Positions 54,668-56,938 of a stretch of DNA of 64,000 bases are shown here, one piece after another. The first letter of the stretch is position 1. The number at the start of each line of letters is the position of its first letter. The translations under genes and the position numbers were made by a program. The notes under the pieces are model-generated. The model saw only the letters and a list, made by a program, of their open reading frames with translations. It ran no database searches and had not been told where the DNA came from. Origin of the DNA: Alphaproteobacteria bacterium UBA1185 (GTDB taxonomy: Bacteria; Pseudomonadota; Alphaproteobacteria; Rs-D84); the NCBI GenBank assembly GCA_002310415.1, contig DBYN01000006.1:154565-218564 (forward strand). The letters run 5' to 3'.

Positions 54668-56938
54668 TTATTTCAAAGGTTCCAAAATTTTTATTTCTTT
54701 GGTATTTGGATTATAAATCTTTGGTACCCCATCATATCCCATAATTGCGTGGTGTGATGGAATTAAAAATTCAGGTAGTGGGGATGATTCACCCAATGCC
54801 ATTTTTGCCAGTAATGCCTTTTGTACAGGGGTTTTGTTTAAATAGTATCTAATATTAGTGGCTTCAATTGGTCTGTGATAATAACCTTGGTAAATGACAA
54901 GTTGTTTATCAATAGGCAATTTCATAATGTCCATTACAGTGAACAATGGGCCTTCTTTTGGTGTTTTCTTTTCTTTACCGTCAGCATCTTTTTCAATTTT
55001 TTCTTTCTTTTGAATACCAATCATATCAGAAAATCTTTTTGCTGTATCCGGGTCATTTTGGCGGAACACAATTTTTGCAGCGGTTGTAGAAATAATAGTT
55101 GCAGCAGCATCAGGACCATATTTTTCTTGGATTTGGTGGATATCTTGGCCGATGATTAAATAAGATACTTTGCATCCGCGCCCTAAATCTGGACCTTGGA
55201 TAACGGCGTCTAATTTTTGCATTTTTGGCATTTCATCTAATACAAATAAAACAGGGCATGGTCCAACGGTTTCACCATCAACAACTGTTCCCGGGGTATG
55301 AGCCAATAAATAACTGGACATCAATTCTATGAAAATCGCGGTAATCGGGTTTACAGCCTGAGCATCAACTAAGTTCACAGATAAATATACACTGACTGGT
55401 TTAATTTTTCCGTCTTTTGGATCCTTTATACCGCGTAAATCAGAAAAATGAAAATCAGAATGACTTGTTCTGTTGCGAACAGCAACATTACGGAAAATTG
55501 CCAAACCTTCCATCATTGTGGATAAAATAGAACCACGTTCCTTATCGGGGGTGTTTGCCAATTGTGTTAATTCAGAAACGCAACGATGTGTATATGCATA
55601 ACGACGTGCCTCATCAACAGCGTTGATAAACAAATCCTTCATCGGGTCTGCCATCATGACCATTTGGTCACCTTGTTTACGGCGTTCTTCCAATTCTTCG
55701 GCAATTTGAACTTGGCTTGCAGTTAACCAATCCAGAATCATAGATAAAGATGCTTCTTTGCCATGCCATGCGTCTGGGATATTAGCCCAAGTTCCAACAT
55801 GAACATAGTTTGTCGCATTTAACTCACCACGTTGCAACATTGTATAAGCAGCGTACGCATTTGGGTCATTCATCATTGATAAATAATATTCACCAAGCAA
55901 CGCAACATCATCACTTGTCATTGTGCCGTTATTTATTTTGAAATAAAAATAATCGTCTGCTTTGGCGCGTTCTATTTTTGATACAATAAAATGAATTAAG
56001 CCAGCCAAGCCAGCACGTCCTGTATTTGCCCAGTGTGGGTCGGCATTTCCAGATTTTGCATCTGGAACCAATACTTTACAAATAGCATCAATATACAAAT
56101 CACGTTTTTCCGGATTATAGGGAACATGCTCTGGTGACAAAGGATTCCATGATGGATAATATATACCATGTTCAGGGTCATCTTGACCAGACCAATTCAT
56201 TATAAATACAGGCCCCACAGTTGAACGGTATCCAGATGTATCTTGTTTTAATTCTGGTTTTGGGTCGTTTATAATCATTGATACTGTATCGCATTCCAAA
56301 ATTGTTGGACGTACAACACCAGTTGTTTTACCTGTACCCGGAGGTGCCACACACAAAGCAGATAATGATTCGTCAAACATTAACGGGGTTTCTTTGCCTT
56401 TGTATTTGAAATACCCCAGCACCATCATAAATCCATTGAATAAACCTTCCTTGTTTTTGAAATTTTGTCCCATTTTTTTGATATCATCAGCAGTCGCTTT
56501 GCGGGAAGATTTTTCATCATATTTATCCTTGCTGTGTGGATTAAATTCATCTTTGAATGTTATATCGGCAAGGAAATAATATGCGATAATTGGTAATATT
56601 GGGGTTATTGATGCGATATCAGGATGATTTAAGGTGCGAGATATCCAATATGGTACCTCTGCCACAGCGGACAATCCAAACGTAGTGAATAAGTTTTTTA
56701 TGTATATTATTGACCATTGTTGACTGGCAGGTGACCAACCATATCGCCATATATATTCAATTACAAAAGAAAATCCAAATGCCACCGCGCAAATAAGCCA
56801 TATTCCAACGTCCCACCGTAGTTCCCAAAAGCGTCGCGCCATTGGTATTTGTTCGTGTTCTTTGTACGCGGAAGAATCAAAGATTTTTAAACCTTTGCCG
56901 GAACCACTGCTAGAGAAAAAGTTGAATTTTACAGCCAT
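54668..56938 (-). CDS. virD4: Type IV secretion system coupling protein VirD4/TraG
   Basis: 756 aa. Two N-terminal TM helices, Walker A 'VAPPGTGKTTGVV', Walker B 'VLFVLDEMP', TraG/VirD4 family architecture. Confidence 0.85.
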   Translation of the reverse strand: MAVKFNFFSSSGSGKGLKIFDSSAYKEHEQIPMARRFWELRWDVGIWLICAVAFGFSFVIEYIWRYGWSPASQQWSIIYIKNLFTTFGLSAVAEVPYWISRTLNHPDIASITPILPIIAYYFLADITFKDEFNPHSKDKYDEKSSRKATADDIKKMGQNFKNKEGLFNGFMMVLGYFKYKGKETPLMFDESLSALCVAPPGTGKTTGVVRPTILECDTVSMIINDPKPELKQDTSGYRSTVGPVFIMNWSGQDDPEHGIYYPSWNPLSPEHVPYNPEKRDLYIDAICKVLVPDAKSGNADPHWANTGRAGLAGLIHFIVSKIERAKADDYFYFKINNGTMTSDDVALLGEYYLSMMNDPNAYAAYTMLQRGELNATNYVHVGTWANIPDAWHGKEASLSMILDWLTASQVQIAEELEERRKQGDQMVMMADPMKDLFINAVDEARRYAYTHRCVSELTQLANTPDKERGSILSTMMEGLAIFRNVAVRNRTSHSDFHFSDLRGIKDPKDGKIKPVSVYLSVNLVDAQAVNPITAIFIELMSSYLLAHTPGTVVDGETVGPCPVLFVLDEMPKMQKLDAVIQGPDLGRGCKVSYLIIGQDIHQIQEKYGPDAAATIISTTAAKIVFRQNDPDTAKRFSDMIGIQKKEKIEKDADGKEKKTPKEGPLFTVMDIMKLPIDKQLVIYQGYYHRPIEATNIRYYLNKTPVQKALLAKMALGESSPLPEFLIPSHHAIMGYDGVPKIYNPNTKEIKILEPLK

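Follow-up and report, generated by a model that had tools for sequence, protein, structure and literature searches.

The window analyzed here, a 64-kb stretch of DNA, carries a solitary gene for a coupling ATPase (T4CP) of the VirD4/TraG family. It comes from Candidatus Enterousia, an alphaproteobacterium of gut and rumen in the order Rs-D84 whose genome measures ~0.75-1.0 Mb. The question raised by this locus is what a T4CP does in such a genome when none of the other genes of a type IV secretion system (T4SS) lie beside it. An earlier note on this DNA had read the gene as one part of a scattered T4SS, a layout it called typical of obligate intracellular alphaproteobacteria, and we followed up that reading by analyses of protein families, predicted structure, and related genomes.

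The coupling protein gene and its surroundings

The features of the locus are as follows.
52743..52769, no strand: bidirectional terminator-like hairpin (10-11 bp stem, T-run on both strands) closing the T4CP-Lip415-LpoB unit
52787..53392, minus strand: LpoB-family lipoprotein, 201 aa, 12 bp downstream of Lip415 (TIGR02722, Pfam LpoB)
53405..54652, minus strand: Lip415, TPR lipoprotein restricted to the clade, 15 bp past the end of the T4CP gene (lipobox LYSC, no family match)
54668..56938, minus strand: T4CP, VirD4/TraG-family coupling ATPase, 756 aa, ATG start
55232..55252, minus strand: Walker B VLFVLDE, V563-E569 (alignment; in 81/81 orthologs)
56324..56347, minus strand: Walker A APPGTGKT, A198-T205 (alignment A1; in 81/81 orthologs)
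56558..56617, minus strand: predicted TM helix 2, residues ~108-127 (hydropathy; AF2 helix H108-124)
56747..56815, minus strand: predicted TM helix 1, residues ~42-64 (Kyte-Doolittle window >1.4; AF2 helix H32-66)
56939..56989, no strand: divergent intergenic region between the T4CP gene and rsmE, 51 bp, presumed to hold promoters (sequence)
56990..57649, plus strand: rsmE (16S rRNA m3U1498 methyltransferase), the conserved divergent neighbor (Pfam, NCBIfam, synteny)

The T4CP matched Pfam PF02534 (T4SS-DNA_transf) at 2.7e-49 (168.7 bits; gathering cutoff 20.1), PF12696 (TraG-D_C) at 2.7e-19 (69.8 bits; cutoff 22), and PF10412 (TrwB_AAD_bind) at 1.1e-18 (67.8 bits; cutoff 20.5). The Walker A string quoted in the earlier note, VAPPGTGKTTGVV, is present in the ORF, its K204 is invariant among the 34 sequences of alignment A1, and the acidic pair of Walker B is D568 and E569. 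When a profile was searched against solved structures, Helicobacter pylori Cagbeta (8DOL) was matched at 3e-18, and TrwB and DotL were matched too; a profile was needed for this, as a single-sequence phmmer search of the PDB returned nothing at E<=0.01. An AF2 model of the protein (pLDDT 87, pTM 0.78) gave Cagbeta (9e-20) and TrwB (2e-13) as the top Foldseek matches, with target TM-scores of 0.64-0.74, and its predicted fold is the NBD plus all-alpha domain seen in TrwB (target TM-score ~0.72). Judged by domain, motif, and predicted-fold criteria, ORF 54668-56938 is confirmed as a full-length, intact T4CP; Pfam, alignment, hydropathy, and AF2 thus agree with the original description of a full-length coupling ATPase with a Walker A motif and two N-terminal TM helices.

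The protein nevertheless belongs to no curated subfamily, since it scored far below the cutoff of every NCBIfam VirD4/TraG/TraD model tested (equivalogs NF010472, NF010424, NF010450, NF010453, TIGR02759, and NF045973). Its best model was NF045973 (125 bits vs. a cutoff of 250), followed by NF010450 (108 vs. 674), the two models named VirD4, NF010472 (98 vs. 728) and NF010424 (61 vs. 681), and TraD_F (39 vs. 521), although such score profiles are a rough proxy for placement among the rvh, vir, trw, and tra clades. Given these low scores and the empty phmmer search of the PDB, the function of this T4CP may have diverged. A role in anti-phage defense was also considered and set aside, as PADLOC gave only a weak P-loop match to mad8.

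ORFs and family matches both bear out the arrangement first described for the locus, i.e., two lipoprotein genes downstream of the T4CP gene and rsmE divergent upstream. Consensus-like -35/-10 sites occur on both strands of the T4CP/rsmE gap, in a number no higher than expected by chance. No terminator-like sites were seen between the T4CP, Lip415, and LpoB genes, which are probably co-transcribed in the window's species. Scans of the window with Rfam and for tRNAs gave no matches.

Neither a relaxase nor any VirB gene, transposase, or mobile-element integrase turned up in the 64-kb window, as the earlier note had claimed for the relaxase, VirB4/B11, integrases, and transposons. The scan consisted of Pfam and NCBIfam searches of ORFs lacking an obvious housekeeping identity, together with tblastn using two full VirB sets, while the other ORFs were assigned by eye alone. 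The sole tyrosine recombinase of the window (23504-24451) is of the housekeeping XerC/D type. A relaxase or tra cluster just beyond the window had been named as one observation that would overturn the reading; the 10 kb past its right end contain housekeeping genes only. Our own guess, from PBP2-rodA-topA-dnaG-ychF synteny, that virB3-virB4 would lie just to the right proved wrong: an FtsI-like PBP stands there, with recJ, lolA, and tatC after it. Neither the window nor the 10 kb past its right end contains VirB4.

Conservation of the coupling protein at core-gene level

A solitary T4CP gene could be a decaying or non-functional relic of a plasmid or integrated conjugative element, and both the lack of adjoining VirB genes or a relaxase and the low scores on curated T4CP models fit such an origin. 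The comparative data point the other way. The T4CP gene stands divergent from rsmE-rluB-TPR in ~78/78 species (74/78 loci by script, the other four being ORF start-call artefacts), so that its position beside rsmE is fixed. In 81/81 genomes its reading frame and Walker motifs are undisrupted, dN/dS is ~0.02-0.15, and we saw none of the disabling mutations that the earlier note had listed as a possible refutation. Mean identity to the window's protein is 74% for the T4CP, compared with 60% for RsmE, 64% for RluB, 77% for RpoH, 81% for EngA, and 82% for ThrRS, a level of conservation that matches housekeeping genes. These results show that the T4CP is conserved as a core gene under strong purifying selection.

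The hallmarks of an ICE or conjugative plasmid module are likewise missing from the locus: no mobile genes adjoin it in the window or the right flank, the site is fixed, searches for integrases, transposases, and repeats came back empty, and the GC content (0.346) is normal for the window (range 0.30-0.38). Since the rsmE site is fixed, conservation is at core level, and dN/dS is low, the T4CP gene is not a mobile-element remnant, and its not being part of an integrated conjugative element is supported. The comparative data have effectively refuted the idea of a decaying relic already, and we regard it as scarcely credible.

Whether the neighbors share in the function of the T4CP is a separate matter. 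The earlier note had suggested that the two lipoproteins are surface components of a T4SS rather than PBP activators. This suggestion found no support: the LpoB ORF scored 123.2 bits against TIGR02722, passing the curated equivalog cutoff of 110.55, and matched Pfam LpoB (PF13036) at 7e-32, with an LCAC lipobox. Lip415 has no Pfam or NCBIfam family match, and its AF2 model (pLDDT 70) retrieved generic TPR folds only. A word-seeded search yielded 461 homologs of Lip415; among the 120 listed, all were of this clade's type, 62-98% identical, and without annotation. The check proposed in the earlier note, co-conservation of the lipoproteins with virD4, lent no support to a shared function either. 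Lip415 adjoins the T4CP gene in 32/70 species, accompanied by LpoB wherever the contig reaches far enough (80 species loci). The pair lies beside the T4CP gene in 26/28 species of the window's subclade vs. 6/42 deeper ones, does not lie beside it in the outgroups L087, L089, and L090, and comes within 10 kb of a virB4 gene in 0/80 loci. The linkage is therefore lineage-specific and need not be functional. Since the rsmE-rluB-TPR block is even more syntenic (~78/78), being neighbors says little about function in this clade, and rsmE is best regarded as a conserved neighbor of the T4CP gene rather than a functional part.

The virB3-virB4 islet and the extent of the probable secretion system

Other T4SS genes do occur in the clade. 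A conserved islet, virB3-virB4-orf200, shares a contig with the T4CP gene in three relatives, at distances of 6 kb (L078), ~30 kb (GCA_017475605.1, contig JAFVFD010000005.1), and ~153 kb (JGI contig Ga0265298_10000005). Only same-contig pairs verified by record name were kept; L026 and L098 (each 23,525 bp) had been taken for one contig and have no sequence in common. A single VirB4 family was seen, 78-96% conserved in >120 clusters, with its Walker motifs intact in 75-76/76. The virB3 gene is directly upstream of virB4 in 72/74 loci, and orf200, encoding a small secreted HExxH protein, follows the two in 61/68. Dispersal of T4SS genes among housekeeping genes is thus supported for the clade, and to this extent the claim of a scattered T4SS stood.

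The rest of the machinery is less evident. The 10 kb on either side of the T4CP gene contain no VirB gene in the window or in 79/80 species loci, and virB3-virB4 alone in L078. At E<=1e-4, tblastn detected no homolog of VirB2, B5, B6, B8, B9, B10, or B11 in ~160 clade loci, which cover only a few genome regions and a small fraction of any genome, so that the result is also bounded by the sensitivity of tblastn. No VirB6 homolog was seen within 10 kb of virB3-virB4 in 80 loci. VirB11-like tblastn matches in L043, L045, L051, and others proved to be the T2SSE ATPase of a pilus-like PilO/T2SSE/T2SSF cluster that is present in relatives. On this side the scattered-system claim went beyond what was found, with no VirB2/6/8/9/10/11 in the ~160 loci and no VirB4 in the window or its right-hand 10 kb; a complete T4SS in the clade is something we infer.

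More distant relatives retain the T4SS context. One of the closest found is L087, from an uncultured gut bacterium, whose T4CP (P0127) shows 40-44% identity and its VirB4 36-38%. Its T4SS cluster is also chromosomal and flanked by housekeeping genes. It differs in that the T4CP gene is in a VirB10-VirB11-T4CP operon beside VirB9, VirB8, VirB4, VirB3, and a secretin, P0127 is longer (909 aa), and the genome encodes cytochrome c maturation and is therefore less reduced. The best plasmid relative, a T4CP with 33% identity on an Erythrobacter megaplasmid, is encoded within a VirB2-B11 cluster with a MobA/MobL relaxase. With one relative in a VirB cluster and the other in a VirB2-B11 cluster, these contexts point to ancestry from a T4SS-linked T4CP.

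An alternative is that the T4CP operates without a canonical T4SS channel, as a stand-alone or re-purposed membrane translocase or ATPase, the VirB6-B11 genes having been lost in genome reduction. Its partners would then perhaps be VirB3 and VirB4 only, a type IVb-pilus-like system, or the co-transcribed lipoproteins. The lack of detected VirB6/8/9/10/11 homologs in any clade locus, the divergence of the T4CP from curated families, the tight T4CP-Lip415-LpoB unit of the window's subclade, and the PilO/T2SSE/T2SSF cluster of relatives are all consistent with this. However, the searches reached a small fraction of any genome at the sensitivity of tblastn, the 44%-identical P0127 belongs to a full VirB cluster, VirB3 and VirB4 have been kept and conserved, and the lipoprotein link is missing in most deeper lineages. 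Moreover, we know of no T4CP described as acting without a channel, and this too counts against such a role, which we judge very unlikely. Another conceivable arrangement, in our estimation quite unlikely, is that the T4SS of Enterousia and Rs-D84 has been reduced to an inner-membrane engine of VirB3, VirB4, and VirD4, with lineage-specific envelope parts replacing VirB6-B11. Such parts may include the HExxH protein beside virB4, Lip415 and LpoB, outer-membrane barrels, or the type IVb-pilus-like apparatus. If true, this would be a new T4SS architecture in a bacterium of <1 Mb parasitizing other gut cells.

Compared with the rvh T4SS, the system suggested here is likewise a chromosomal, vertically inherited P-type system of a reduced-genome alphaproteobacterium, with genes in islets among housekeeping genes, a virB3-virB4 islet, and no relaxase. 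RvhD4 offers the precedent of an effector-binding T4CP in a relaxase-less T4SS, and the hallmarks of rvh include duplicated RvhB4/B8/B9, multicopy RvhB6, and no VirB5 (PMC11077975). Neither duplicated B4/B8/B9 nor multicopy B6 was observed in the clade loci covered. The virD4 gene of Rickettsia is not solitary but shares islet C with virB8/9/7/10/11, and five virB6 paralogs come after virB3-virB4a (PMC2653234), whereas in Enterousia virD4 is solitary, virB3-virB4 is followed by the HExxH protein, and the order is Rs-D84, not Rickettsiales. An rvh-type virD4/virB8-virB11 array was seen neither at the window's T4CP gene nor in the 80 species loci. The rvh analogy is therefore a loose one: it extends to the dispersal of chromosomal T4SS genes, but virD4 of Rickettsia is placed with virB8-B11, and on the two NCBIfam models named VirD4 the T4CP fell far short (98 vs. 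728 and 61 vs. 681 bits).

Possible substrates and lifestyle

Cagbeta (Cag5, PDB 8DOL), the best solved-structure match by both profile and fold, is the T4CP of the Cag T4SS, which translocates effectors and has no relaxase, and an enlarged all-alpha region is common to the two proteins. They differ in that structure-based identity is only ~14-17%, Cagbeta is encoded within the cag island with its partners while the window's T4CP is solitary, and the regulator CagZ has no detected counterpart at the window locus. With TrwB of R388 and VirD4/TraG, the protein shares the plan of TM anchor, NBD, and AAD and the same Walker motifs; unlike theirs, its gene is in chromosomal core DNA without a relaxase or adjacent mating-pair-formation genes. 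TrwB has 507 aa, compared with 756 aa here, and in the model, from helices at ~residues 276-490, the all-alpha region appears ~2x larger than that of TrwB.

T4CPs are ancestrally conjugative, and it is possible to suppose, on that ground, that the T4CP, VirB3, and VirB4 serve a DNA-handling T4SS for conjugation-like transfer, DNA release, or uptake, with a relaxase or other DNA-processing genes elsewhere in the genome. The names of the matched Pfam domains refer to DNA transfer and DNA binding, the nearest annotated plasmid relative adjoins a relaxase, and the survey covered part of the genome only, all of which would suit this supposition. Against it, no relaxase was found in the 64-kb window or the right-hand 10 kb, nor within 10 kb of the T4CP or VirB4 genes in ~160 loci searched by Pfam tables and tblastn, and vertical inheritance together with conservation on a par with core genes, in a genome of 0.9 Mb, does not resemble a transfer element. 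We consider DNA handling unlikely.

The reading that we think probable is that the T4CP is the substrate-receptor ATPase of a chromosomal, vertically inherited VirB/VirD4-like (P-type) T4SS scattered among housekeeping genes. It would form a hexamer in the inner membrane, bind substrates, and use ATP to pass them to a channel energized by VirB4. Since no relaxase or mobile gene accompanies it, the genome is ~0.9 Mb, and transporters are few, these substrates would most likely be proteins bound for a partner or host cell and not plasmid DNA. Points against this reading are that no substrate, effector, or relaxase was found in the DNA searched, that tblastn of the ~160 clade loci gave none of VirB2, B5, B6, or B8-B11, and that the protein scores low on curated T4CP models.

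Ca. Enterousia has a genome of <1 Mb, no respiration, and few transporters, and has independently been proposed to be partner-dependent (PMC12306168). The published descriptions of Enterousia and Rs-D84 genomes that we searched mention no T4SS or other secretion system, and we found no literature linking Rs-D84 to T4SSs. Given an intact core T4CP and, in related species, virB3-virB4 elsewhere among housekeeping genes, the Enterousia lineage probably relies on secretion machinery in its interactions with other cells. That the T4CP and VirB3-VirB4 are conserved at housekeeping level in at least 80 species suggests that type IV secretion is central to the lifestyle of these uncultured bacteria, which are widespread in gut and rumen and have genomes of <1 Mb, and offers a concrete handle on a life as parasite or epibiont of microbes, protists, or host cells. 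The T4CP finding reveals no new kind of machine. It carries the "archipelago" layout beyond Rickettsiales into a second alphaproteobacterial order with reduced genomes, where it is more extreme in that virD4 stands alone, and it exposes a gap in annotation, as the clade's VirB4 is a "hypothetical protein" at NCBI.

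The coupling-protein gene and its product

The earlier note had reported a full-length type IV coupling ATPase with a Walker A motif and two N-terminal transmembrane segments, flanked by two downstream lipoprotein genes and a divergent upstream rsmE, and this observation was upheld in every particular. The features are as follows.

54668-56938, minus strand: type IV coupling protein (T4CP; VirD4/TraG family), 756 aa, ATG start
T4CP A198-PPGTGKT-205, minus strand: Walker A, in the sequence as quoted in the earlier note
T4CP V563-LFVLDE-569, minus strand: Walker B, canonical motif in the sequence
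T4CP residues ~42-64 and ~108-127: membrane helices predicted from hydropathy
51 bp upstream of T4CP, divergent: rsmE
53405-54652, minus strand: Lip415, 415-aa lipoprotein without a family match
52787-53392, minus strand: LpoB-like lipoprotein, 201 aa (TIGR02722, 123 bits; cutoff 110.6)
52743-52769, after LpoB: strong bidirectional hairpin

The product matched three T4CP-defining Pfam families, all far over their gathering thresholds (T4SS-DNA_transf, 2.7e-49; TraG-D_C, 2.7e-19; TrwB_AAD_bind, 1.1e-18). From an alignment of 54 sequences, AlphaFold2 gave a confident model (pLDDT 87.2, pTM 0.78), whose top fold match in the PDB was the Helicobacter pylori T4CP Cagbeta (8DOL; E 9e-20), followed among the best by TrwB (1E9S/1E9R; E ~1e-13, target TM-score ~0.72). 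Sequence-profile searches likewise returned Cagbeta (3e-18), TrwB (2e-4), and DotL (3e-4). In the model, the helices of the all-alpha domain (~residues 276-490) make it about twice the size of TrwB's. We conclude that the T4CP is genuine and intact. No curated NCBIfam cutoff was reached, however: the protein scored 98 against 728 (NF010472) and 61 against 681 (NF010424) for the models named VirD4, 108 against 674 for IncP TraG and, at best, 125 against 250 for the CD1115 family. The protein thus belongs to the T4CP superfamily but to no curated subfamily within it.

Conservation, ancestry, and host lineage

Close homologs (70-100% identity, 750-768 aa) number in the hundreds in metagenome-assembled genomes. 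When each GTDB species was represented by a single genome, 278 relatives emerged. The best 80 (68-87% identity), from rumen and from the guts of horses, chickens, mice, and humans, nearly all bore the label Candidatus Enterousia or were unnamed Alphaproteobacteria. Judging from one of its proteins, the window probably derives from bovine rumen. Enterousia belongs to the uncultured order Rs-D84 and has genomes of ~0.75-1.0 Mb from which the TCA cycle, respiration, and the standard transporters for nutrients are missing; its describing authors proposed an obligate symbiotic or parasitic lifestyle and did not mention secretion systems (PMC12306168). Our literature search found no publication tying Rs-D84 to a type IV secretion system (T4SS).

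A solitary coupling-protein gene could be the decaying remnant of an ICE. Among 80 species loci, however, T4CP was scripted as divergent from rsmE-rluB-TPR in 74/78, and the remaining four were artefacts of crude ORF start calls; therefore, the arrangement is effectively universal. Mean identity to the window's T4CP was 74%, which is higher than for its immediate neighbours in the same loci (RsmE, 60%; RluB, 64%; TPR protein, 65%) and similar to that of core genes (RpoH, 77%; EngA, 81%; ThrRS, 82%). Both Walker motifs were present in all 81 copies, the window's included, and 79 were full length, the other two being shortened by contig ends. Nei-Gojobori dN/dS across twelve close pairs was 0.02-0.15, and GC content around the gene was unremarkable. 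Taken together, fixed synteny, core-level identity, intact motifs, low dN/dS, and ordinary GC effectively exclude an ICE remnant. T4CP is conserved as a core gene under strong purifying selection.

An exhaustive search among 1.8 billion cluster representatives showed that full-length relatives form a gradient of identity (50%, 48%, 46%, 44%, 40%, and on). The 50% and 48% relatives are solitary amid housekeeping genes, like the window's gene. The 44% relative (P0127, 909 aa) lies inside a chromosomal T4SS cluster (outgroup locus L087), in the order VirB10/TrbI, VirB11, T4CP, with VirB3, VirB4, a small lipoprotein, VirB8, VirB9/CagX, and a secretin on the opposite strand. The best plasmid relative, on an Erythrobacter megaplasmid (33% identity), lies in a complete VirB2-B11 cluster with MobA/MobL. 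Since both sit in VirB clusters, the Enterousia gene descends from a T4SS-linked, P-type T4CP. The L087 secretin (PF00263; L087:13410-14741), between VirB9/CagX and an uncharacterised 224-aa protein, is an unusual component for a T4SS cluster of the VirB type.

The virB3-virB4 islet and a possible role

The earlier note had suggested a scattered T4SS. Neither the window nor the 10 kb to its right contains a VirB4; virB3-virB4 does, however, share a contig with T4CP in three relatives. In L078, tblastn with the L087-cluster proteins revealed a homolog of VirB4 (772 aa aligned at 37% identity) and a VirB3-like ORF, which lie only 6 kb from a T4CP 70% identical to the window's. The other two cases were confirmed by record name: GCA_017475605.1 contig JAFVFD010000005.1 (virB3-virB4 at ~318-321 kb, T4CP at ~351-353 kb) and JGI contig Ga0265298_10000005 (T4CP at ~101-103 kb, VirB4 at ~257 kb), which shares the window's ThrRS-TPR-rluB-rsmE / T4CP-Lip-LpoB layout. 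More than 120 VirB4 clusters, all 802-810 aa with Pfam VirB4 domains, were 78-96% identical to that of L078. Since NCBI names the clade's VirB4 (P0295, P0298, P0331, P0334, and others; CagE_TrbE_VirB and VirB4_TrbE_N) "hypothetical protein", the T4SS was probably missed in published metabolic reconstructions.

Across 80 metagenomic VirB4 loci, virB3 was directly upstream in 72/74, Walker motifs were intact in 75-76/76, and the usual context was mreCD-PBP2-rodA-topA-dnaG-ychF, housekeeping like that of T4CP. In 61/68, the gene directly downstream encodes a secreted protein of ~200 aa in which an HExxH motif is invariant and for which Pfam and NCBIfam give no match; it could be a T4SS-associated metallopeptidase or effector:

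L078:4420-5025: HExxH protein, motif HEDEH
L091:12414-13040: HExxH protein, motif HENKH
L098:12482-13054: HExxH protein, motif HEEQH

No homolog of VirB2, B5, B6, B8, B9, B10, or B11 was detected in ~160 clade loci (tblastn, E<=1e-4). These loci sample a small number of genomic neighbourhoods, and components that evolve so fast are hard to find by tblastn, so the genes may have escaped detection. A channel-independent or re-purposed role for T4CP is a less likely alternative. Apparent VirB11 matches were to the ATPase of a type IVb-pilus-like PilO/T2SSE/T2SSF cluster and hence not VirB11. In some species of the Enterousia clade, a few kb separate this cluster (L043:16712-21385, L091:19390-22421; PAP_PilO-like protein, uncharacterised ORF, T2SSE ATPase, T2SSF platform protein) from T4CP or virB4.

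We conclude that T4CP probably belongs to a dispersed chromosomal T4SS of a reduced-genome gut lineage. TrwB is a hexamer, and VirD4, RvhD4, and Cagbeta are substrate receptors. By analogy with these, the Enterousia protein would form an inner-membrane hexamer, recognise substrates via its enlarged all-alpha domain, and spend ATP to pass them into a VirB4-energised channel. In line with the earlier note, Pfam/NCBIfam scans and tblastn with two complete VirB sets found neither a relaxase nor a VirB gene in the window, nor a transposase or mobile-element integrase, the scans covering ORFs without obvious housekeeping identity and the others being recognised by eye only. The sole tyrosine recombinase (23504-24451) is of the housekeeping XerC/D type, and the 10 kb to the right contains only housekeeping genes, among them sufS, sufE, an FtsI-like PBP, recJ, lolA, and tatC. 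T4CP may serve DNA transfer. Its most likely use is to deliver protein effectors into partner or host cells, since neither a relaxase nor a mobile-element gene accompanies it and its transporter-poor, 0.9-Mb host is proposed to exploit other cells. Rickettsia RvhD4 provides a precedent (PMC11077975).

The Rickettsiales vir homolog (rvh) T4SS is the closest functional analogue: it is encoded on the chromosome in separate islets, passes down vertically, and has no relaxase. In Rickettsia, however, virD4 is grouped with virB8-B11, and virB3-virB4a precedes five virB6 genes (PMC2653234), whereas Enterousia virD4 stands alone and virB3-virB4 precedes the HExxH protein. T4CP is a lead toward the Enterousia lifestyle, of greater interest only if canonical channel genes prove truly missing genome-wide.

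The downstream lipoproteins and other window genes

The gaps from T4CP to Lip415 (15 bp) and from Lip415 to LpoB (12 bp) are short, no terminator-like site lies between the three genes, and the hairpin follows LpoB; therefore, co-transcription in the window seems likely. The earlier note had proposed that the lipoproteins could be T4SS components rather than PBP activators, and had suggested examining their co-conservation with T4CP. Within the window's subclade, defined by a T4CP identity of at least 75%, 26/28 species had the pair directly downstream of T4CP, compared with only 6/42 deeper species. The pair was not beside T4CP in outgroups L087, L089, and L090, and was within 10 kb of virB4 in 0/80 loci. 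LpoB exceeds the curated equivalog cutoff of TIGR02722; Lip415 appears clade-restricted, and its model (moderate confidence) resembles only generic TPR proteins. Since the unrelated rsmE-rluB-TPR genes are tied still more tightly to T4CP, and the small genome rearranges slowly, being adjacent only weakly indicates shared function. A role as T4SS accessories is not supported, though conceivable.

Other window genes also drew our attention. A single 675-aa ORF (38839-40866, plus strand) comprises YbeY endoribonuclease (17-134) and apolipoprotein N-acyltransferase domains (LNT_N, 184-347; CN_hydrolase, 464-621). It is a fused gene, or else a pair of genes that share a frame without a stop between them. 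Signal-peptide proteins of 431, 314, and 345 aa (35275-36570, 36534-37478, 49315-50352), without Pfam or NCBIfam matches, end in YF, LF, and GF; outer-membrane beta-barrels similarly end in aromatic residues. The 345-aa gene is syntenic with rpoH clade-wide. The genes at 51346-52740 encode a DUF2659 protein and, after it, a short, 244-aa BamB-like lipoprotein that covers just a portion of the BamB propeller profile; this pair and rpoH shift as a block relative to T4CP between species. Tandem paralogous AMP-binding (acyl-CoA synthetase-like) genes (915-4126; 536 and 526 aa) are notable in a genome reported to lack most metabolism. Finally, in a strain that shares the window's exact T4CP (TONG22 scaffold_86; L002:17656-21824), two genes of unassigned function (1057 and 332 aa) take the place of the window's 150-aa Cys-rich secreted ORF (~48700-49200), marking a strain-variable spot ~5 kb from the T4CP operon.
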